From a virus (Duplodnaviria; Heunggongvirae; Uroviricota; Caudoviricetes), in IMG/VR virus record IMGVR_UViG_2734482548_000013: a DNA stretch of 39,818 nt. The stretch is one strand, 5' to 3'. The translations under genes and the position numbers were made by a program. Position 1 is the stretch's first letter. Every line of letters starts with the position of its first letter. Positions 2,794-34,812 of the stretch are shown here, piece after piece. The notes below the pieces were generated by a model, which did not search any database, was not told the origin of the DNA, and saw only the letters and a list, made by a program, of their open reading frames with translations.

Positions 2794-5386
2794 TTGCATA
2801 TTCCTTAGCCCAGCGGGGCAGTGATAACGTCTTAATAGCTGGCCATTCATCGGTATTGAGGCAGTCAGCCAGGGTTCGCAGATTGCGGTGATATTCCAGC
2901 TGACCTGCCAGTTTTGCTTCTTCGCCCATCATGAAAATTTCAACCGGATAACGTCCGCATTCAATAGTTGTGCTGGCAACCAGAAAAACGAAAGTTGGCT
3001 GCACTCCAAACTGTGCTTCATAACCGTCACTGTAGAATGCATCCTGAACGTGATAGCGGTAGTCGTAATAAGCGGTTTTGAATCGTTGAATATCCGCCGT
3101 AGTTTTCACGTCCATGATCCAGTGAAATTCAGGGATAATTTTGTCCGGACGGCACCGACACAAAATTGCTGTTTCAGGATCTTCCCAGTAAATTGATGAT
3201 TCAGCGTGTCCGGCGCTTTCAACAAGCCATTGCCCCAGCGGCAAAGCCATAACGCTCTGATACATGAGTTCAATTTTCCGGCCTTCTTCGGCAGTGATAA
3301 CCGTTTTTCCTGTGCTTGCGCATTCCCTCAGAAACGCTTTCTCTTCTTCTTTTCCGGAGTTTGTCCGGCGGTTAAATTCAGGTGCTACGATAAAGCGGTT
3401 ACTGAATTCTTCCGGCTCAAGTACCCGGCAGTGGAAAGCGGTTCCTAAATCGAGCGTTTTTGTCTTTGTGGTGTCCACGGGGGCATTTTTACGCCACAAA
3501 TACAGTGCCGGAGTATCAGCAATGTCATCGAGCTGAGACTTACTGACACCGGGACCCGCGTGGTAATTCTCATTCGAAATTCCGTAATAAATACCTGGCT
3601 CTATGTCTTCTACGATTACGGGATCTGCGACTTCGCCAGTTTCATCACTGCAATCGCGATGCGGATCGCTGCCAGCATTCTCATTGTGCGGATGTTCAGC
3701 GCCTTCCATTTCCTCCGGATCATTTTCCTTAGCTTCAACCTGACTCTCTTCATCGAATGTTTCCTGGTATGTTGCGTCGCCCATCACCGCACCACAGTCA
3801 GGGCAGTTATCCCCGCCAGTCTGGCCGCAGGCATTGCAGGCTATTTCCGGTTCCTGTTGCACTACTGGCTCAGGTTGATTCATATCCGGGCTGGTTTTTT
3901 CCGTTTCTGGCTGGTTCTGGTACACACAATCGCGAGTCTGGATCCCCTTTACCCATTTCGGATCGTTCGGGTCGCTAATTCCGTCAACAAATTCACCACG
4001 TGATGCAGCAAGCAATTTATCGGCATCGACAGGATTTTTTGATGGAATGTTTTTCCGGGCTTCATGGAGTTCTGCCCGCAGTTCCTGATATTTCGCATCA
4101 ACAGAATTTACCTGTGACTGAGCATCCAGCGGCTGCGTGTCCTGATGATGTTCAGTTGCGTCCGGTTCCATTGTTTCAGCCTCTCCCTGTTCAACTGCCG
4201 TTGTTCCAGATGGTTGCGGTTTTTCTTCATCATCCTGTTTTCCTTCTTCTGTTACTCGCTGCGGCATCGGGGCAGAGGAGCGACCGCAGGCAATATCCAC
4301 GATTTCCGGATCAGGGTTGGCATGATCGGTTTCAGTCAGTACTTTGTTCAGATATTCAGTGACGTGCGCGGGGATGACCTCGATCCCAATTGGTGCTTCT
4401 TTTACGGACGCAACCACGATGGCGCGGGAATAATCCAGCCCGCCAGGCATGGTGATGAATTTGTCGCGGAAAACAGAAAAGGGCGGTTTATTTTCAGCGA
4501 TAATTTCCTCAATGCGTTTAGCGTGTGCCGGATGAAGGTTATAGATGTCCAGATCCATTGAACGGGCCAGTACGCCAGTGGCTACGTCCCGCGCCAGTGA
4601 CGTCAGATCGTGTACGAAACCTTCGCCGCGATCGGTGAGGTTTCCGCCGCCAGCATTAGCACCGGAAGCCGTGCGAGTGATGTGTGAAACACGATTACCC
4701 TTCATCCACTCTTTTGTCAGCAGTCCTCGATCGGTGTAGTCAGCGTTCAGGTATGCTTCGAAAAAAGCAGTTATCAGTCCCAGGTTTGAATTACCAGGAT
4801 TAGGGAAAACTTTGTCAGTGTCACGAACCAGTTTGTGGAGTTCGCGAATTTCCAGCGGGTCGAGCAGGCTGGTTTTGTGGGAAACAGCCAGGGCAGTAAC
4901 AGCCGGTAGTTCTTCAGCCCGAGCAATGTGTAATGCCTGGAGTCCGTCGCGTGAAACGTGCGTTACCGGTTTTTCGCTGCCGTGTTGAGCAAGCCAACGA
5001 ATGGGCAGTTCCTGGCCAGAAATTGGGAGTAGCATATTCTCCTCAATCTCAGTCATGTCTTCGCCGTTGACGTTGGTATTGCCTTGATAGTGAGCGTTGT
5101 CTGGTGCTGCTCCCGGTTTTAGTTCCCATGTCATGGAGTCTTTGCTGAGTTGATAGCGTTCACTCCAGGTAAAATCGATCTCACCTTCAGCGGGCAGGTC
5201 ATTAACGACAGGAAAATTCGTGGCAACAGCTTTAAAATAGCTGCTCAGTTTTTTACCTGACTTAACGATCAGGTAGTCCAGAGTGGCACAGGTCGATTCA
5301 AAATCGTTGCTTGCCCACAGGACGACGTCAGGTTCACCGGATGATTTTTTCGCTTTCCGTAACAGGAAGAGTGGTTTTGTGCTCAT
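2786..5386 (-). CDS. recE: RecE exonuclease VIII (full length, 866 aa)
   Basis: 866-aa ORF; acidic middle region and C-terminal nuclease domain; immediately upstream of recT on same strand. Confidence 0.93.
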
Positions 5387-11758: not shown

Positions 11759-11914
11759 ACGTTACTAGATCAAAGAGCATTAGTTCATATGTAAATTGAC
11801 ATTTTTCTGGCACAGGGGAGAGCTAGCGTGGTTGTCCGCTTTGTGCCAATAGCGGACATTGCTGGCTCATGGTATGTTAGTTTAAGGAGGCAGGTTATGC
11901 CCTGTATTTCGCTG

Positions 11915-11923
11915 TGGTATAAT
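11915..11923 (+). promoter_or_regulatory. Extended -10 element TGgTATAAT, candidate promoter for the low-GC cassette
   Basis: Exact TATAAT with upstream TG seen in sequence about 34 nt before the GTG start and 18 nt before the AAGGGAG SD. Confidence 0.4.
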
Positions 11924-11956
11924 AGTTGCGCAATTGATACAAGGGAGCGTTACATC

Positions 11957-12919
11957 GTGAAAATTGTTTTCGAGGTTAATGGAAAGAAAGTTCCACTAAA
12001 ATCTTTAAAATACATAAGCAAAAAAGATCAACTCGAAGTAATGAAAAACTGGTTCTTTGAAAACTTTGAAGATCCGGCAAATGCTTGTCCGTATGAAAGT
12101 AGAGAAGGTGGCTATGCTTACATATATGGCGGGCCGTATGATGCGAGCGAAGAACTACAATCCATCTTCGGTCAATATGTTAAATCTGAGTATATTGAGG
12201 AATTAGTAGATGAATTACAAACACAATGTTTTGACTGGTCTGGAAACTCAAATAATATAGATGATTGGTACGATGATGATATCTACGACGCTGTAACGTC
12301 TTCCGGTAATCCGTATTTAAAATTCATTGATAATATCGATAAAATAAAAAAACTTGCAAAAGATAAAACTGAACAACAGCAAAAAAACCACTTGCTTAGT
12401 TTGCTCTACACGAATGTTATTACAGCTTTGGAAACGCTTTATGTTGAGCTATTCATTAATTCTATAGAGAAAGATGATGTCTACATAGCCAATTGTATAG
12501 AAAAAGGTAAGACTGAATTTAAAGTAAGCAAAGATATTGCTGCGTTGCCTTTCAAGGGTGAACCCATCGAGAAAATTAGGGGAGAGCTAATCAGGTCAAT
12601 CAAGGAACACTTGATCAGTGCAAGCTGGCATAGCACTAAAAAGGTAATCGACCGCTATGAAGCTACATTCGATATAAAAGTACAAAAAGACTGTCCGATA
12701 GAAGCTATTGAATTGGCAACCCTCAATCGAAATCACTTAGTGCATCGTGGTGGAAAGGATAAAGAAGGGAACCTCGTAGTGATTACAGACCAGGATCTTG
12801 AAACGCTGATTGAAAATGCATCGAACCTGGCAATTATGCTCTACAACAGTTTAAATGTAGCAACGAATAAAACCACCATTTTGCAACCAGATGACAAACC
12901 GTTCATTCATGAATTTTAA
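11957..12919 (+). CDS. Unknown protein A of the low-GC two-gene cassette (about 320 aa); family not recognised; possible HEPN-like R-x4-H (NRNHLVHRGG)
   Basis: Long ORF in strongly AT-rich DNA (14 of 60 G+C on the line starting 12301); GTG start at 11957 after an AAGGGAG SD; alternative ATG at 11897 after AAGGAGG; the track start 11828 is probably an upstream read-through. Confidence 0.6.
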   Translation: MKIVFEVNGKKVPLKSLKYISKKDQLEVMKNWFFENFEDPANACPYESREGGYAYIYGGPYDASEELQSIFGQYVKSEYIEELVDELQTQCFDWSGNSNNIDDWYDDDIYDAVTSSGNPYLKFIDNIDKIKKLAKDKTEQQQKNHLLSLLYTNVITALETLYVELFINSIEKDDVYIANCIEKGKTEFKVSKDIAALPFKGEPIEKIRGELIRSIKEHLISASWHSTKKVIDRYEATFDIKVQKDCPIEAIELATLNRNHLVHRGGKDKEGNLVVITDQDLETLIENASNLAIMLYNSLNVATNKTTILQPDDKPFIHEF

Positions 12920-12934
12920 TAGCGCAGGTCATAC

Positions 12935-13936
12935 ATGGATATTCGCACACGAAAGACAAAATTTTTAGAGTCGTTAGATTCAACTGAAGTGATACGCAAA
13001 GCAGTAAGTCTCGCTATAGATTGCATTATTGATAATCATAATAGTAATGAAGATACCCCCTTAGTTATTACCAGCTATGATGATCTCTGTAGAATCCAGG
13101 TGCTAAATTATGTACAGGAGTTTTGCGAAGCTGCATTCCCTGATATGGATGAATATTACTTTAGTCCTAACATACTTCGCATCAACGGCAAGACTAGTGA
13201 AGAAGCTTGTATTAACTTAATTAAACTCTTAAGAAGTACAAAAGGCATGCTATTCTGGTCCGATGCCCCATCGTGGTTCGCTAGCCTCCCCGACGGATTA
13301 TTCCATGTTGTTAACATTGATCAAAAAATCGTTACTCGCGGCCTTAATAAGAAAAACTCTAAGCCGACAATAATCAATAAAGATTACAGTGTAGATACAC
13401 TACTATCAGAGCTATTTTTGAATGGCGCACACATGGAGCAACCCAACGTACACAACGTTTCTGAGGGAAACATGAAGTTCTATGATGAATGCCATGCTGG
13501 ATTAATCAGACCAATACCCGCTCCAATAGGCGCGTCATACGATGAAGAGATCACAATTAATTCTCCAGATTGGCAAAAGCTCGCGTGTGTAGCTTTACGC
13601 CGCTATCAGTCGAAGGAATGTCATGACGGAATGCAATGGGATACAACCGATCATGGTTGGACTGATGTAATCGCGTATCCATTCGTCGAAGAAATACAAT
13701 CAATGGATAATAGTGGTTATCGACAATGTTTAGTTGGGCTGGTCACAATAAACAATTCAAATGCAAATTCTCCGTACCTATCTACCGTTTGGATACATCC
13801 ATTTTATCGCAGGAGAGGGTTATTAAGTAAGTTATGGCCAAAATTACAAGAGTTATATGGAAGTAACTTCGAAATTGAGCGACCTAATGAAAATATGAAA
13901 GCATTTCTGAAAAGTGCGAAACACGCAGATTACTAA
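12935..13936 (+). CDS. Unknown protein B of the low-GC cassette (333 aa) with a C-terminal GNAT-like acyltransferase motif
   Basis: ATG 15 nt after the gene A stop (operon); C-terminal segment CLVGLVTINNS...VWIHPFYRRRGLLSKLWPKLQEL resembles GNAT motif A; AT-rich (18 of 60 G+C on the line starting 13021). Confidence 0.65.
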   Translation: MDIRTRKTKFLESLDSTEVIRKAVSLAIDCIIDNHNSNEDTPLVITSYDDLCRIQVLNYVQEFCEAAFPDMDEYYFSPNILRINGKTSEEACINLIKLLRSTKGMLFWSDAPSWFASLPDGLFHVVNIDQKIVTRGLNKKNSKPTIINKDYSVDTLLSELFLNGAHMEQPNVHNVSEGNMKFYDECHAGLIRPIPAPIGASYDEEITINSPDWQKLACVALRRYQSKECHDGMQWDTTDHGWTDVIAYPFVEEIQSMDNSGYRQCLVGLVTINNSNANSPYLSTVWIHPFYRRRGLLSKLWPKLQELYGSNFEIERPNENMKAFLKSAKHADY

Positions 13937-22313: not shown

Positions 22314-23102
22314 ATGAGCGAGAAATTAAAGATAGTCTATCGCCCATTACAAGAATTGTCACCGTATGCGCACAACGCCAGGACGCACAGTACTGAGCAG
22401 GTGGCACAACTGGTAGAAAGTATTAAGCAATTCGGCTGGACTAATCCGGTGCTGATTGACGAAAAGGGCGAAATTATTGCGGGTCACGGTCGTGTTATGG
22501 CGGCTGAAATGCTCAAAATGGATTCTGTTCCGGTCATTGTTCTGTCTGGCCTGACGGATGAGCAGAAAAAGGCGTACCGCCTGGCAGATAATCGCCTGCC
22601 GATGAATGCTGGCTGGGATGAAGATCTGTTGCGGATGGAGCTGTCGGACCTAATCAATGCTGATTTTGATGTCTCCCTGACAGGCTTCATCCCGGCAGAA
22701 ATTGATGAACTGTTGACGGATGTTTTGCCCGGTACAGGAAATGAGGAGGAGCCGTATACGACGAAAATTGATACGCCTGTTTATGAGCCGTCAGGCGGTA
22801 AACCGGATATCAGTGAACTGTACGACGATACGAAAACTCAGGAGCTGATCAGCCGGATACGTTCGGCGTCCCTTGATCCTGATATTGAGAAATTCCTCCT
22901 GTGTGCAGCAGAACGTCACACGGTGTTTAATTTCAGCAGAATTGCGGACTATTACGCTCATGCCCCCGCTGAAATTCAGTGCCTTTTCGAGGAGTCGGCG
23001 CTGGTGATCATTGATTATCAGCAGGCTATTGAAAATGGATTTGTCCGAATGACGCAGCGCATGGTGGAGATCATGCATGGCGGGGAGGAGGAATATGCGT
23101 GA
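22314..23102 (+). CDS. ParB-like nuclease-domain protein (the short K-12 ynaK appears to correspond to its N-terminal part)
   Basis: ParB/Srx-type motif EIIAGHGRVMAA in the N-terminal domain; acidic C-terminal half. Confidence 0.75.
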   Translation: MSEKLKIVYRPLQELSPYAHNARTHSTEQVAQLVESIKQFGWTNPVLIDEKGEIIAGHGRVMAAEMLKMDSVPVIVLSGLTDEQKKAYRLADNRLPMNAGWDEDLLRMELSDLINADFDVSLTGFIPAEIDELLTDVLPGTGNEEEPYTTKIDTPVYEPSGGKPDISELYDDTKTQELISRIRSASLDPDIEKFLLCAAERHTVFNFSRIADYYAHAPAEIQCLFEESALVIIDYQQAIENGFVRMTQRMVEIMHGGEEEYA

Positions 23103-24027
23103 TGATTTTTGCGCCTTTATTCTGACTCACGGGCGACCGGACAAAGTTCTGACTTACCGGACGTTGCGTCGTGCTGGCTATACCGGGAAAATTTTTATCG
23201 TTGTTGATGATGAAGATAAGACACGGCATCAGTACATGGCTGAATTTGGTGAACAGGTGCTGGTATTTTCCAAAGCCGATATTGCTAGTCGTTTTGACGA
23301 AGCCGATAATTTTAGTGACCGCCGCTCAATTTTTTACGCCCGTAATGCCTGTTTCGACCAGGCAAAACTGGTCGGGTGTAAATACTTCATTCAGCTCGAT
23401 GATGATTATCACGAGTTCCAGTTTCGGGTGGATCGCAACTATGACCAGGCCTATTTCCCGATAAGGAAACTGGATGAGATCCTTTCTGAAATGCTTGCGT
23501 ACTACGAATCAATACCTGCTCTTTCCATCGCTATGTCGCAGGGCGGGGATTTTCTTGGTGACAATGGCGGCCATGCTTCGTGGGTGAAACGCAAGGCAAT
23601 GAACAGCTTTATCTGTTCGGTTGATCGACCGTTCTCATTCATGGGGCGCATTAACGAGGATGTGAATACGTACACGAATCTCGGTCGCTGTGGTGAATTG
23701 TTTATGACGATCGGTGCTGTCCAGTTAGGGCAGAAACAGACGCAGAAAAACAGCGGCGGAATGACCGAGCTGTATCTGGATTCCGGAACCTACGTTAAAA
23801 GTTTTTACTCCGTCATGTATGCGCCGTCGTGCGTAAAAATCTCACTTATGGGTGCCAGTCATAAACGCATTCACCATCAGGTCACCTGGAACAACGCTGC
23901 AGTAAAAATCCTTCACGAAAAATACAGGAAGAAGACACCCTGCATATCAATGGGGGTGACAAATGATTCCGTATTCGAAAGTCGAGTCTCTGGCAGCGTG
24001 CCGGATGACTGCACAACAAATCGCTGA
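23095..24027 (+). CDS. Putative GT-A-fold glycosyltransferase-like protein (DxD motif), substrate unknown
   Basis: Start overlaps the ParB-like stop after a GGAGGAGG SD; N-terminal ILTHGRPDKV...FIVVDDED Rossmann-like start and FIQLDDDYHEF DxD-type motif; assignment from motifs only. Confidence 0.45.
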   Translation: MRDDFCAFILTHGRPDKVLTYRTLRRAGYTGKIFIVVDDEDKTRHQYMAEFGEQVLVFSKADIASRFDEADNFSDRRSIFYARNACFDQAKLVGCKYFIQLDDDYHEFQFRVDRNYDQAYFPIRKLDEILSEMLAYYESIPALSIAMSQGGDFLGDNGGHASWVKRKAMNSFICSVDRPFSFMGRINEDVNTYTNLGRCGELFMTIGAVQLGQKQTQKNSGGMTELYLDSGTYVKSFYSVMYAPSCVKISLMGASHKRIHHQVTWNNAAVKILHEKYRKKTPCISMGVTNDSVFESRVSGSVPDDCTTNR

Positions 24028-24214
24028 CGTTCTGGATGTTGATCTGAACCGACTGAAAGAAAATCGGGAAGCAATGACAGATTTTTATGCGGCCATCCGT
24101 AAGGGCAGAGCGAAAGGTGAAGCCGAGTTACGAGCGGCATTGTTTAAGCTTGCCAGAAAAGGGGATGCCTTTGCTCTGCGCGAACTACTCAGGGTGGATA
24201 AAAATCAGGACTAA
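23963..24214 (+). CDS. Small helix-rich protein, possible DNA-binding protein of the packaging module
   Basis: 83-aa ORF overlapping the 3' end of the upstream gene; start uncertain (internal Met at 24005 possible). Confidence 0.35.
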   Translation: MIPYSKVESLAACRMTAQQIADVLDVDLNRLKENREAMTDFYAAIRKGRAKGEAELRAALFKLARKGDAFALRELLRVDKNQD

Positions 24215-24217
24215 CTG

Positions 24218-25312
24218 ATGAGCAGACCGGACTGGGGGGCGTTGCAGCAGGAGTATATTGCTGAATACACCCGCTCCGGTATATCTCCGGTGGCATGGTG
24301 TGAAGCAAGGGGACTGAATTACGCAACAGCCCGTCGTTACATCAAAAAAACTCCGAAAAATGCGCAGACAGAAATGTGCAAAACTGCGCAAAAAAGTGCG
24401 CAGAAAAAATCTGCGCAGACTGCACAAAAGCGGAACGAAAAATCTCAGGAAAAAAAGCCAGTATTCGATGCGGGCCTGAATGAGGGCGACGCGGAGGAAT
24501 TTTCGTTCTGTCCCGATGAATTCGGCATTTCTGACCAGCAGGCTAAGTTTGCGATGCTTGTTGCTCAGGGTAAAAAGCCGACAGAGGCGTACCGACTAGC
24601 CGGTTATGAGGGGCAAGGTGCGACAGCTAACAGCAACGCCAGTCGTATGCTTAGAAATGCCAGGGTTTTTCGCGCTATCAGCTACTTCCGCAATCAGTAC
24701 CAGAAACGCTATACCGCAGACCTGGATTTACTAGTGAGTCAGTTGATGGCTATTGTCCTGGCCGACCCCAATCAGCTTGCACAATTTCGCCGTGTTAACT
24801 GCCGTTATTGCTGGGGCGAGAATCATCTCTACCAGTGGCGCGATATAGCAGAATTCGACAAGGCAGCGGCGCAGGCTTCCAGAGATGGCAAACCCGAACC
24901 GGAATATGGAGGCCTCGGCTTTGTTGATAACGCCATACCCAATCCGGACTGCCCGAAGTGCTGCGGTGAGGGAACGGGACAGCTTTATATGGCTGATACC
25001 ACTCTGCTTGATGGGGATGCGCGGCAATTATATGCAGGGGCAAAATTCGGAAAATTCGGCGTTGAGATCCTGCTGGAGGATAAGGCTGCCGCCCGGCGTG
25101 AATTGTTGCGTTTGTTTTCTGCTGGCGGGGCTTTATGTGCAGATAAGCGGCTACGGGAACTGGAAATTGAACGGCGCAGAATGGAAAACCAGAAGCTGCG
25201 CAAAGAGATCGAAACGGTGGAAGATAATGAACATCCCCAGCCTGTGGCGATCAATATTAATGTGGTTGATGCCAGAGTAAGGAGTGATGAAGATGATCTC
25301 TCCGACGCTTAA
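24218..25312 (+). CDS. Terminase small subunit (large variant with N-terminal HTH and C-terminal Cys4 zinc-ribbon-like segment)
   Basis: N-terminal HTH GISPVAWCEARGLNYATARRYI; terminase-small-subunit-like block FAMLVAQGKKPTEAYRLAGYEG...ANSNASRMLRNARVFRAI; CRYCWGE...CPKCCGEG; directly upstream of the large terminase. Confidence 0.7.
   Translation: MSRPDWGALQQEYIAEYTRSGISPVAWCEARGLNYATARRYIKKTPKNAQTEMCKTAQKSAQKKSAQTAQKRNEKSQEKKPVFDAGLNEGDAEEFSFCPDEFGISDQQAKFAMLVAQGKKPTEAYRLAGYEGQGATANSNASRMLRNARVFRAISYFRNQYQKRYTADLDLLVSQLMAIVLADPNQLAQFRRVNCRYCWGENHLYQWRDIAEFDKAAAQASRDGKPEPEYGGLGFVDNAIPNPDCPKCCGEGTGQLYMADTTLLDGDARQLYAGAKFGKFGVEILLEDKAAARRELLRLFSAGGALCADKRLRELEIERRRMENQKLRKEIETVEDNEHPQPVAININVVDARVRSDEDDLSDA
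24361..24426. repeat. Six palindromic hexamer repeats (five TGCGCA-type, one TGCACA) inside the terS coding sequence; candidate pac or TerS-binding site
   Basis: Seen directly: TGCGCA at 24361, 24385, 24397, 24412; TGTGCA at 24375; TGCACA at 24421; they generate the KTAQKSAQKKSAQTAQK protein repeat. Confidence 0.5.
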
Positions 25313-26594
25313 TGTGCCTCAGGCGCGATTTCTTTCAATGCCCCATAAATTTAAAGCCTATATTGCTGGTTTTGGCTCGGGCAAAACATGGGTTGGGTGT
25401 GGCGGCATATGCAAGGGGATTTGGGAGCATCCAGGTATAAATCAGGGATATTTTGCGCCAACGTATCCCCAAATTCGCGATATTTTTTACCCTACAGTGG
25501 AAGAAGTTGCTGCTGACTGGGGATTGAACGTAAAAATTAATGAGGGAAATAAAGAGGTTCACTTTTATTACGGACGCCAGTATCGGGGAACCACTATCTG
25601 CAGATCGATGGAGAAGCCACAAACGATCGTCGGTTTCAAAATTGGTAATGCGTTGGTGGATGAACTGGACATTTTGCCGAAGGAAAAAGCCAGAACGGCG
25701 TGGCGCAAGATAATTGCACGTATGCGTTATAAGATTGATGGACTTCGCAACGGTATTGACGTTACAACCACGCCGGAAGGATTCAAATTTGTCTACGAGC
25801 AGTTTGTTAAAGCCGTGCGTGAAAAAACAGAGCTGGCCTCACTGTATGGTCTGGTGCAGGCATCTACTTTCGATAATGAAAAGAACCTGCCAGCAGATTA
25901 CATTCCTTCGCTTCTTGAATCATACCCTCCAGAGCTGATTAAAGCCTATCTTCGAGGACAGTTTACTAACCTGACAAGTGGTACTGTTTACCATCAGTTT
26001 GACCGGAAACTGAATAATTGCGAAGAAGTGGAGCAGCCAGGGGAGCCGATTTATATTGGGATGGATTTTAACGTTGGAAAGATGGCGGGAATCGTCCATG
26101 TGCTGCGTTTGGGGCTTCCATGTGCGGTAACTGAAATCATCAATGCCTACGATACGCCGGATATGATCCGCATCATTAAAGAACGCTTCTGGCTGTATGA
26201 TGGGAATGATTACCGGAAAGTGAGGGAAATTTATATTTATCCAGATGCTTCCGGGGATTCCAGAAAATCAAGTAACGCAAGTACGACGGATATAGCCCAG
26301 CTTAAGCAGGCTGGTTTTAACGTTGTGGTGAACAGCTCGAACCCGCCAGTAAAAGATCGCGTTAACTCAATGAATGCAATGTTCTGCAATGCCAATGGTG
26401 AGCGTCGCTATAAAGTTAATGTGAAGCGTTGCCCGTTATATGCCGAATCTCTGGAGCAACAGGTCTGGGATGAGAAGGGGGAGCCTGATAAAAAATCTGG
26501 CAATGATCACCCGAATGATGCCGGAGGTTATTTCATCGTTAAGCAATTCCCTATTGTCAAACCGACCGGAAGAGTCACATCACTTCGGATTTAA
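25293..26594 (+). CDS. Terminase large subunit
   Basis: Walker A GFGSGKT near the N-terminus; C-terminal nuclease-like acidic residues; start chosen at the ATG 8 nt after AAGGAG. Confidence 0.85.
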   Translation: MISPTLNVPQARFLSMPHKFKAYIAGFGSGKTWVGCGGICKGIWEHPGINQGYFAPTYPQIRDIFYPTVEEVAADWGLNVKINEGNKEVHFYYGRQYRGTTICRSMEKPQTIVGFKIGNALVDELDILPKEKARTAWRKIIARMRYKIDGLRNGIDVTTTPEGFKFVYEQFVKAVREKTELASLYGLVQASTFDNEKNLPADYIPSLLESYPPELIKAYLRGQFTNLTSGTVYHQFDRKLNNCEEVEQPGEPIYIGMDFNVGKMAGIVHVLRLGLPCAVTEIINAYDTPDMIRIIKERFWLYDGNDYRKVREIYIYPDASGDSRKSSNASTTDIAQLKQAGFNVVVNSSNPPVKDRVNSMNAMFCNANGERRYKVNVKRCPLYAESLEQQVWDEKGEPDKKSGNDHPNDAGGYFIVKQFPIVKPTGRVTSLRI

Positions 26595-26596
26595 TT

Positions 26597-28003
26597 ATGG
26601 CTGATATATCAACACCCAACCTCGACTATAACGATATGCTGGAGGCGTGGGATATTAACGACGCACTGATGGGCGGTACGCTTGAAATGCGCAGGCAGGG
26701 GGAAAATTATCTCCCAAAATGGCCTAACGAAGATGAAGACGCTTATAAAAAACGCCTGTCTGTGGCTACGCTACTTCCTGTGTATGAAGAAAGCATCAAG
26801 CAAAATATTGGGCGCATATTTGCAGAGCCGACAGTATTGAGTGAGGAAACGCCGGCAAAAATCAGGGAATATGCAGAAAATATCGACATGGAGGGGAGCC
26901 GACTGGATGTGTGGGCGCAGCAATTTTTCAGCCTCGCATTTCAGTATGGTGTGGCACATGCGCTGGTGGACTATCCACGAACGGATATGAAAGAGATTCG
27001 GACAAAAGCCGATGAAAACGCGACCGGTGGTCGTCCGTACGTTACGATGCTGAATCCACGCCAGGTTATTGGATGGAAATCGAAAGTTGAAAAAGGGAAA
27101 GTTGTTCTCACTGATTTGCGTATAAAAGAGGTCATCATTATTGATGGTGATGATTTCGGGCAGAAGAAGGTGGAGCAGATCCGCCATATTATGCCCCGTC
27201 GAGTTGAAATTTATCGACGTAGCGAAGGCACTAATGGCGAATCTGTCTGGACGCTTCATGAGTCATGGAATACCAGCCGTGATGATATTCCTCTGGTAAC
27301 ACTGTACACGAAGAAAACAGGATTTATGCGTGGTACACCGCCATTGCTTAATCTTGGCTTGCTGAATATCAAGCACTGGCAAAGCCAGAGCGAGCAGGAC
27401 AATATTCTTCATGTTGCCCGCGTTCCATTGCTGGTGGCCTACGGGCTGGACAGGAATGAAGAACTGACGGTTGGTGCATCCACCGCTACGATTTTTGAGG
27501 ACAGAACAAAAAATGGCCTCGAATATGTTGAACATAGTGGCGCAGCGATAGAATCTGGCGAAACATCACTTGAGAAGCTGGAAAATCAGATGCGTCATGC
27601 CGGCGCTAAACTTCTGCGTGCTGAAAATACATCCACCAAATCTGTTGATCAGACTAATGAAGAGCGAATGCAGGAAAACTCGCCGCTTTATACAATGGCG
27701 AACTCCCTCGAAGATGCCCTCGATAATATTCTCCAGATAATGGCGGAATGGATCGGAGAGAGTTGCGGTGGCAATGTGGATGTGCGCACTGAACTGGATG
27801 TATCTGCCCAGGTGTTTGACTCATCCTCCGCGCTGGCTGTTCAGTCATTGCGTCAGGGCGGTGATATACGTCAGATTGATGCGGTTCGGGTGTTGCAGGC
27901 GTTGAAATTTATCGATCAGGATTCCCGTCCAGAGGAAGTGATCGATGAATTAAAAAATCAGAGTGTAATGCTGATGGAAATCAATGATGCAAACCGTGAA
28001 TGA
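26597..28003 (+). CDS. Portal protein (by position and size)
   Basis: 468-aa ORF immediately after the large terminase. Confidence 0.65.
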   Translation: MADISTPNLDYNDMLEAWDINDALMGGTLEMRRQGENYLPKWPNEDEDAYKKRLSVATLLPVYEESIKQNIGRIFAEPTVLSEETPAKIREYAENIDMEGSRLDVWAQQFFSLAFQYGVAHALVDYPRTDMKEIRTKADENATGGRPYVTMLNPRQVIGWKSKVEKGKVVLTDLRIKEVIIIDGDDFGQKKVEQIRHIMPRRVEIYRRSEGTNGESVWTLHESWNTSRDDIPLVTLYTKKTGFMRGTPPLLNLGLLNIKHWQSQSEQDNILHVARVPLLVAYGLDRNEELTVGASTATIFEDRTKNGLEYVEHSGAAIESGETSLEKLENQMRHAGAKLLRAENTSTKSVDQTNEERMQENSPLYTMANSLEDALDNILQIMAEWIGESCGGNVDVRTELDVSAQVFDSSSALAVQSLRQGGDIRQIDAVRVLQALKFIDQDSRPEEVIDELKNQSVMLMEINDANRE

Positions 28004-33966: not shown

Positions 33967-34080
33967 TTTTCCGTTATTCCTCCTGTGGTACTGCCCTACA
34001 GGGGGACGCATTGAATGAGGTTATGGATGTTTATTCTTAATCAGAAAATTATCATTGGTGGAGAACGCTGGTTTACGCCA

Positions 34081-34291
34081 ATGAAGGACTTAAAACCTGT
34101 AGACGGGTTAAAACTGTTGGTGGCAAGCAGCGATAACGATCAGTATCGCTCCCGTAATGCATTAATCCGTCGCCACATTGAGAAAATGGATGCCAGTTTG
34201 CACGTCGGAACGAAGGAGTTTGATATTTCAAAGGTTTCCGAGGTGGATTCTGTTGATGATTTACTCATTGATAATGCCGCTCGTTATCTGC
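34081..34291 (+). CDS. Tail assembly chaperone, 5' part, truncated by the assembly gap
   Basis: ORF starting MKDLKPVDGLKLLVASSDNDQY running into the N-run; position equivalent to lambda G. Confidence 0.4.
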
Positions 34292-34565
34292 NNNNNNNNN
34301 NNNNNNNNNNNNNNNNNNNNNNNNNNNNNNNNNNNNNNNNNNNNNNNNNNNNNNNNNNNNNNNNNNNNNNNNNNNNNNNNNNNNNNNNNNNNNNNNNNNN
34401 NNNNNNNNNNNNNNNNNNNNNNNNNNNNNNNNNNNNNNNNNNNNNNNNNNNNNNNNNNNNNNNNNNNNNNNNNNNNNNNNNNNNNNNNNNNNNNNNNNNN
34501 NNNNNNNNNNNNNNNNNNNNNNNNNNNNNNNNNNNNNNNNNNNNNNNNNNNNNNNNNNNNNNNNN
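34292..34565. other. Assembly gap (274 nt of N)
   Basis: Uninterrupted run of n characters in the sequence. Confidence 1.
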
Positions 34566-34812
34566 AGAAAAACTCAGGTTGCCACCGATACCGGAACCAG
34601 AAATAGACCCGGTGCTTAAGGAGTTGTTGTACGCCTATTCGGTAATATCCCGTGCCCGACGTTATGCTGGAATGGCTGGGGTGCCTTTGCCTTTATCTCT
34701 GACAGAGATAAATGAATATTTAGCCACTCATCCGGTATTGATTGAGCGCGATGAATTTGAAGCAGTGATCTTTGCACTGGATGACCAGTATTTTCAGGAG
34801 CAGTGTGTGTAG
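34566..34812 (+). CDS. Tail assembly chaperone, 3' part (possibly the frameshift-extension T-like portion), truncated by the gap
   Basis: Open frame resuming after the gap, ending ...DDQYFQEQCV before the tape measure gene; frame relation across the gap unknown. Confidence 0.35.

Follow-up and report, generated by a model that had tools for sequence, protein, structure and literature searches.

The virus record IMGVR_UViG_2734482548_000013 from IMG/VR is a stretch of 39,818 nucleotides that we call the window. It contains a gene for a small terminase subunit, terS, whose coding sequence carries a cluster of short repeated DNA words. We refer to this cluster as the hexamer array, and we consider it here as a candidate pac site, i.e., the site at which packaging of phage DNA starts. 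Library scans of the open reading frames (ORFs) identify the window as a Rac-type lambdoid prophage of Escherichia coli. Among its genes are those for an integrase, RecT/RecE, SieB, a repressor, YdaT, a Q-like antiterminator, lysis proteins, TrkG and a protein with a ParB_N domain. After them come the genes for a TET-associated glycosyltransferase, the terminase, a DUF4055 portal, a Mu-F-like protein and a P22-type coat protein. The terS product matches PHROG 51, annotated as 'terminase small subunit' (E 7e-75).

An exact pattern search finds the word TGCGCA at positions 24361, 24385, 24397 and 24412, together with TGTGCA at 24375 and TGCACA at 24421. The start-to-start spacings are 14, 10, 12, 15 and 9 nucleotides (nt), and the array corresponds to nt 144 to 209 of terS, in which the six words encode K-T-A-Q-K-S-A-Q-K-K-S-A-Q-T-A-Q-K. 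An earlier sequence-only reading had reported six TGCGCA-type words within 66 bp of terS, spaced 9 to 15 nt apart, and both the sequence and the exact search agree with this description. The same reading called the hexamers self-complementary. This is correct for the four copies of TGCGCA; however, TGTGCA and TGCACA are not palindromes, but only the reverse complements of each other, each one transition away from TGCGCA. Because both of these variant positions are TGCGCA in most E. coli relatives, the ancestral array consisted of six perfect copies. The sequence TGCGCAGA at 24397-24404 pairs with the palindrome TCTGCGCAGA around the fifth hexamer to form an 8-bp inverted repeat.

In the whole window, TGCGCA occurs 18 times versus 15 expected, and four of these occurrences fall inside 57 nt. 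The maximum number of copies per 66 nt in 300 first-order Markov simulations was 2, and a Poisson estimate gives window-wide probabilities of ~6e-5 for the four TGCGCA and ~1e-7 for the six-word cluster. We also performed a codon test, in which the peptide of residues 45-72 was held fixed and synonymous codons were resampled from the phage's own usage. The resampled sequences contained a mean of 0.43 TGCGCA, with a probability of 2.5e-4 for at least four TGCGCA and 5e-5 for at least six of the three words. Given the first of these probabilities, codon choice is bent towards making TGCGCA. The DNA word is not forced by the encoded peptide.

Table 1. Features of the terminase region, with positions in the window
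Feature	Position	Strand	Basis or remark
terS, small terminase, 364 residues	24218..25312	+	N-terminal helix-turn-helix (HTH), disordered linker, Terminase_2 core
N-terminal PacA-type (IS66 TnpA-like) HTH domain, residues 1-44, proposed hexamer reader	24218..24349	+	
Codon 39 (CGT, Arg) in predicted recognition helix ..TARRYIKK	24332..24334	+	separates TGCGCA and TGCGAA classes
Coding sequence for K/A/Q-rich predicted disordered linker, residues 44-94, host of the array	24347..24499	+	AlphaFold2 (AF2)
Hexamer array, proposed pac recognition element	24361..24426	.	statistics, conservation, covariation with N-domain
10-bp perfect palindrome TCTGCGCAGA, centered on fifth hexamer	24410..24419	.	repeat search
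Terminase_2 core of TerS: own HTH and oligomerization region, CxxC-containing insert	24512..25180	+	Pfam, AF2
terL, large terminase (nuclease/ATPase)	25284..26594	+	Pfam Terminase_6N, Terminase_6C

Conservation of the DNA word

We compared the array among 160 related loci, which were collected from IMG/VR and from GTDB species represented by one genome each, and to which annotated phages were added. Arrays of 3 to 10 TGCGCA, placed after the same 44-residue N-terminal HTH domain (the N-domain), are present in ~100 non-redundant relatives that span more than 25 genera. The first 343 nt of terS, array included, can be found in 891 of the 5426 complete E. coli genomes, e.g., at 100% identity in E. 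coli W or strain 7/2, and RefSeq names the product 'terminase small subunit'. Klebsiella prophages with a TerS of only 37% identity have six TGCGCA in the same place, right after ..ARRYIKK, and these words occupy three codon phases.

Genes whose N-domain contains ARRY (106 non-redundant genes) have a mean of 4.95 TGCGCA in the 156 nt that follow ..RYIK. Flanking sequence of these loci (~3.5 kb each) has a background frequency of 0.42 per kb, corresponding to ~0.065 expected copies per 156 nt. When TGCGCA positions are plotted as a histogram, they form a single sharp peak between +120 and +240 of the gene. A small number of ARRY-class genes have fewer than three hexamers, and these genes are broken or truncated.

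The word is encoded as xxT-GCG-CAx (phase 3, 400 cases), as xTG-CGC-Axx (phase 2, 86 cases) and as TGC-GCA (phase 1, 28 cases). About 30 peptides carry it; the first T is contributed by twelve different amino acids, and xTG by Leu, Val or Met. In an alignment of 29 unique sequences from many genera, diversity is 0.046 in hexamer columns versus 0.246 in spacers (P = 2.5e-4), and it is 0.341 at third codon positions of the conserved N-domain. The sequence-only reading had proposed, as a check, that the hexamers be conserved independently of codon choice, and this is what the three phases, the variety of peptide contexts, the range of genera and the more variable spacers reveal. From these sequence comparisons, we conclude that purifying selection acts on the DNA word, and not on the peptide.

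In several prophage copies (L054, L067, L139, L164, L168, L171, L172 and others), terS is frameshifted or truncated, and most of these copies keep the hexamers. The terS of L054 has an extra A in the A-run just 5' of the first hexamer, and the long A-runs that separate the hexamers seem liable to slippage.

We looked for arrays outside of terS in 120 IMG/VR stretches in which three or more TGCGCA lie close together. The N-domain is encoded adjacent to the words in 73 of the 120 stretches, and two more contain the same array, truncated by the end of the contig. The remaining stretches consist of simple tandem repeats that are rich in GC or of intergenic clusters that are unrelated, and no clear satellite with a copy of the array was found among the 120. 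In one IMG/VR contig (L284, positions 3705-3740), three TGCGCA overlap the start of an ORF of 104 residues, with no PacA-type domain nearby. This ORF resembles a small-terminase N-terminus by eye (..KGKPNKRTV..), and the contig may represent an independent case of TGCGCA near a packaging gene.

The N-terminal domain and its relationship to the word

The AF2 model of TerS has a mean predicted local distance difference test score (pLDDT) of 51, which is too poor for a fold search, and we used it only for domain boundaries and disorder. The N-domain is modeled with pLDDT 74-80 and has helices at residues 3-20, 24-30 and 35-38, the linker of residues 44-94 has pLDDT below 50, i.e., predicted disorder, and residues 99-160 of the core have pLDDT 75-90. 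The array sits in the coding sequence of this predicted disordered linker, which is consistent with the suggestion of the sequence-only reading that the gene appears to accommodate a cis-acting site.

The core matches Pfam Terminase_2 (PF03592) over residues 122-321 (E 3.8e-8; 34.5 bits versus a cut-off of 26.1), and scores for this family among TerS relatives reach E 7e-30. It is 33-41% identical to the TerS proteins of F116 (36%), Bcep22, PEp14 and related phages, all of which begin at the core. The relatives of TerL are mostly Jersey-like and Kagunavirus siphophages and also include Pseudomonas phage Medea1; identity to Jersey-like TerL proteins is 43-44%. A sequence search of the PDB found no solved relative of the N-domain or of TerL, and found for the TerS core only a weak match to the Pam5 small terminase (E 0.22). 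Just upstream of terS, at 23963-24214 (+), lies an ORF of 83 residues that matches PHROG 309, also 'terminase small subunit' (E 8e-23). The match covers only positions 145-218 of the 319 in the profile, and RefSeq has a shorter overlapping ORF named 'hypothetical protein'. The 83-residue ORF may have been left over from a different small terminase, or it may be a separate part of one.

The N-domain has no Pfam family match, and its match to the NCBIfam IS66 TnpA HTH (E 2.5e-5) is below the family cut-off. It occupies residues 1-45 in nearly all of the best 150 of 190 cluster representatives. Three proteins in the representative library (P0164, P0217 and P0251) are made up of 4-7 tandem HTH copies that are like the TerS N-domain (W..I.E...SG.S...WC.E.GI...TF..W), and they therefore link this domain to the IS66 TnpA-like HTH superfamily.

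The pac site of phage P1 has been known since the 1980s, and the sequence-only reading had drawn an analogy to it. We compared a profile of the N-domain to the N-termini of P1 PacA and two PacA relatives using hhalign, and obtained an end-to-end alignment. The comparison with the P1 PacA N-terminus has a probability of 96.8% over 39 columns (E 3e-10, for a single comparison). Residues 6-80 of the window's TerS match PHROG 1711, the PacA family (E 3.8e-5), P1 PacA itself matches PHROG 370 (E 1.9e-4), and a pairwise BLASTP comparison with PacA is marginal (E 0.047). Based solely on hhalign and the PHROG profiles, we conclude that the TerS N-domain is homologous to the N-terminus of P1 PacA. The TGATCA/G hexamers of P1 are located at nt 194-233 and 324-380 of pacA, just after the HTH, with the annotated cleavage between them at ~nt 276-285. 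The analogy to P1 is therefore strengthened both by the homologous domain and by the equivalent place of the hexamers.

A second class of relatives, with AKRY at the corresponding position of the N-domain (25 genes), has 0 TGCGCA and instead has a mean of 5.2 copies of TGCGAA(T)/(A)TTCGCA at the same position. Among 69 unique domains of the TGCGCA class, residue 39 is Arg (once His), whereas it is Lys in the 17 unique domains of the TGCGAA class, and position 39 is the sole column of the N-domain that is disjoint between the two classes. Both word classes are found on three TerS cores (PHROG 51, 32222 and 370), with no mismatches of residue and word in intact genes. Because residue 39 and the word never mismatch across three cores, the N-domain and the array appear to travel as one module. 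Additionally, no array was found within ~2 kb in four homologues that have the same core without the N-domain (F116, Parlo, LASTA and Stean). Since the word class covaries with residue 39, and since homologues without the N-domain lack an array, the N-domain is the probable reader of the hexamers.

It is about an even bet, in our estimation, that the PacA-type HTH and the hexamer array constitute a portable, self-contained packaging module that was grafted onto at least three unrelated small-terminase cores besides P1 PacA, and whose specificity was re-programmed more than once (TGATCA, TGCGCA and TGCGAAT, of which the last two differ by R39K). As far as we know, the spread of the PacA HTH and hexamer array as a portable module over many Enterobacterales prophage terminases would be new, as would at least two further word specificities with a single-residue candidate determinant between them.

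Two other observations concern the arrays of relatives. In Rac-SA53 (L012, KU052037; positions 820-950), a deletion fuses terS to the upstream gene, such that the N-terminal HTH and the first hexamer are gone. Three of the five remaining hexamers have single substitutions (TTCGCA, TGCGCT and TGCCCA), and the spacers are identical to those of relatives, although this is a single anecdote. A weaker second TGCGCA cluster is found at nt 360-403 of terS in Klebsiella-type loci (L007, L008 and L010), and also in L011 and L143-L150. It is ~160-200 nt downstream, in the region of the Terminase_2 HTH, where the peptide is [VI]AQAIAQQQ or FAQN[IV]AQ. The hexamer-forming codons are biased and the neighboring Ala codon varies freely, a codon bias that indicates a constraint at the level of DNA. 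The PHROG-32222 core keeps its pair of TGCGCA-type words even with a TGCGAA-class N-domain.

A proposed packaging role and its alternatives

We propose, with a probability of roughly 65%, that the hexamers form the recognition element of a pac site of P1 type, which is read by the PacA-type N-domain of TerS, and that headful packaging starts nearby. In the mechanism that we envision, a TerS oligomer would present several flexibly tethered N-domains, which would bind neighboring hexamers together. Joint binding would make TerS highly avid for such a cluster, which the phage contains only once and which is very unlikely to recur in the host. Once bound, the TerS complex would position TerL to cut near the array, and this cut would begin headful packaging. 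We infer the identity of the array as pac, the binding of the hexamers by the N-domain and the position of the cut.

It is important to emphasize the points that weigh against this proposal. The headful mode is deduced solely from membership in Terminase_2 and from the F116 TerS and Jersey-like TerL relatives. A narrow hidden Markov model of the N-domain does not match PacA significantly (E 0.29). The helix core TARRY is common to P1 and the TGCGCA class, yet the two read different inner dinucleotides, so that residues other than those of the shared core must contribute to specificity. The word of P1 is TGATCA/G, versus TGCGCA (or TGCGAAT) here, and an array without GATC is also without Dam methylation control. 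In P1, 4 + 3 hexamers flank the cut, whereas the prophage has a single cluster of six, and no second hexamer cluster was found in the window's terS when one mismatch was allowed. The consensus for integration host factor (IHF), WATCAANNNNTTR, was not found with at most one mismatch in positions 23392-26797, although such a consensus scan may miss a divergent site. Many of the compared sequences are related to one another, so that our counts overstate the number of independent events. Finally, searches of openly available full text found nothing relevant that links TGCGCA arrays to terminase genes, nor any experiments on DNA ends, binding or packaging in this TerS family, and papers on the Yersinia relatives and the vB_EcoS records report no end mapping.

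The hexamers could be sites for the TerS N-domain and yet have a regulatory role, e.g., autogenous control of the terminase, or a roadblock or pause within terS. All evidence that the N-domain reads the words, i.e., covariation, linkage and absence without the domain, fits this idea equally well. The sites are also inside the gene's own coding region, and the related IS66 TnpA-like class of HTH is not restricted to packaging. We nevertheless consider regulation unlikely, because in P1, the sole characterized homologue, the equivalent hexamers are pac, with mapped cleavage between them. Moreover, the module is found only on small terminases, among the matches listed, and no promoter-like sites were found near the array. 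A little less probable still is that the hexamers are bound by some other factor (a host protein, the upstream 83-residue TerS-like ORF or a recombination system), or that they are hot spots of short homology for the exchange of terS modules at the linker. The array is indeed exactly at the junction where N-domains and cores were shuffled, and the weaker second TGCGCA cluster follows the core, rather than the class of the N-domain. However, another factor would not explain the one-to-one covariation with residue 39 or the lack of arrays in homologues without the N-domain, and the upstream ORF is not conserved beside the Klebsiella and Yersinia relatives that keep arrays. A pure recombination hot spot, for its part, would not require that one particular hexamer be conserved base by base, and in two alternative versions.

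The two remaining explanations do not involve a protein that reads the words, and we regard both as very improbable. Neutral replication slippage in a low-complexity coding linker of AQK type, with no function of the DNA, might be suspected from the period-12 and period-36 repeats that Tandem Repeats Finder reports, from the tolerance to change of a linker that is predicted to be disordered, and from a copy number that ranges from 3 to 10, with a deletion in one relative. We consider slippage effectively ruled out by the persistence of the word at 37% protein identity, in three phases and ~30 peptide contexts, by hexamer columns that are ~5 times more conserved than spacers of the same linker, by an alternative word that is seen only with R39K, and by the codon resampling (P = 2.5e-4). 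Equally improbable is that the words serve to form a nucleic-acid structure, whether as hairpins in the mRNA that modulate the translation of terS or as an intrinsic terminator that acts on antisense transcripts. The window's array does fold far better than shuffled sequences (z = -5.5), as does the Klebsiella array (z = -4.2), and the minus strand of 24397-24428 has two terminator-like hairpins with T-runs, e.g., TGCGCAGA-TTTTT-TCTGCGCA followed by CTTTTTTG; the palindrome at 24410-24419 likewise scores as a terminator-like hairpin on the minus strand. However, repeated palindromes fold stably automatically, and relatives pair different hexamers, with no common architecture and with z of only -1.6 to -2.4 in other members. 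There is also no Rfam match, and the hairpin with a T-run is absent from the Klebsiella-type arrangement. As an observation in its own right, the minus-strand hairpins at 24397-24428 could stop antisense transcription.

Several other features of the window were noted. We considered, and rejected, methylation control of the Dam type known from P1, as the hexamers are without GATC and no DNA methyltransferase turned up when 26 window ORFs were scanned with Pfam. Two genes between trkG and terS encode the ParB_N-domain protein (22314-23102, +) and the TET-associated glycosyltransferase (TAGT, PF20691; 23077-24027, +), the latter annotated by RefSeq as 'GREB1-related protein'. Among the window ORFs scanned, neither a TET/JBP dioxygenase nor a cytosine methyltransferase was found that might be a partner for TAGT. 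Two adjacent ORFs of the early region, at 11828-13936 (+), have weak matches to HEPN/RES N-terminal domain 1 (363 residues) and to a GNAT acetyltransferase (333 residues), and this pair could be prophage-borne cargo of a defense or toxin type. In the tail-gene region, 274 bases at 34292-34565 are N (masked or unknown), and ORF calling is broken around 34015-34812.

For most temperate phages, the pac site is unknown, which blocks the prediction of generalized and lateral transduction. Here, sequence by itself yields a pac candidate that is specific and falsifiable, for a family of prophages that occurs in 891 of 5426 complete E. coli genomes and in more than 25 other genera, and it names residue 39 as a candidate determinant of specificity. 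The signature of hexamers after an HTH is a possible rule for annotation, and a handle for transducing particles with orthogonal packaging specificities. If the portable-module hypothesis is true, then the pac site, the packaging specificity and the start of lateral transduction could be read directly from sequence for many Enterobacterales prophages as a class, among them those carried by ~16% of complete E. coli genomes, and packaging specificity could be engineered by swapping modules.

Comparison with known packaging systems

In Bacillus phage SPP1, the small terminase G1P is the archetype of Pfam Terminase_2, and pac (pacL/pacC/pacR) is in or beside terS. The oligomeric ring of G1P shows several HTH motifs to repetitive, A-tract-rich DNA. 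The prophage resembles SPP1 in that the TerS core belongs to the same Pfam family and in the location of the (candidate) pac site in or beside terS. It differs in that SPP1 uses the core's own HTH, with no extra domain of PacA type, and different short boxes. Recognition in SPP1 is also described as largely independent of sequence, whereas the prophage has a discrete hexamer that is conserved base by base.

In phage lambda, cosB consists of three 16-bp R-sites and an IHF site upstream of Nu1, and is bound by the N-terminal HTH of gpNu1. Both lambda and the prophage thus have several short elements by the terminase genes and, as predicted for the prophage, an N-terminal HTH of the small terminase as their reader. 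In contrast to the prophage, the R-sites are outside of the gene, cleavage at cos leads to cohesive ends, and the HTH is an unrelated winged helix.

The pac site of phage P22 is within gene 3 (terS), and is a single asymmetric site of ~22 bp that is weakened by wobble mutations (PMC11260489). In both P22 and the prophage, the packaging signal, which in our case is a candidate, is embedded in the reading frame of terS. P22 differs in that it has no repeat array, and its TerS is unrelated and without a PacA-type domain. The pac site of ES18 is still unidentified (PMC11260489). For phage Gally, from E. coli LF82, pac has been mapped within the phage's own terS (PMC9928086). We considered Gally as direct experimental support and rejected it, since its TerS is an unrelated protein of 140 residues, so that the data on Gally do not apply here.

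A further comparison is to P1. In both P1 and the prophage, clustered copies of one hexanucleotide (six in 66 nt in the prophage, 3 to 10 copies in its relatives) are inside the 5' third of the small-terminase gene, directly behind the homologous N-terminal HTH. Their words share the form TGNNCA, the spacing is irregular in both (7-15 nt in P1, 9-15 nt in the prophage), and there is a parallel in how the word is accommodated by the codons, with xxT-GAT-CAx in P1 and xxT-GCG-CAx in the prophage. When the P1 words were disrupted by synonymous changes, phage yield dropped ~9-fold (PMC10028697). PacA-like genes in two more distant P1-like relatives (L295 and L296) have the same layout, with TGATCR words, and L295 appears to join the PacA-type layout to a core resembling PHROG 370.

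Apart from the differences in word and arrangement given above, the TerS core in the prophage is Terminase_2, which is unrelated to the rest of PacA, and its TerL is of the Terminase_6 type, not PacB. P1 is also a plasmid prophage, whereas the host element here is a lambdoid, Rac-type prophage. In the strict sense, then, the array is not a P1 pac, from which it departs in three defining features. What the two systems share is the working principle and the reader domain, and the long-isolated pac/PacA system of P1 is thereby connected to a wider modular family.

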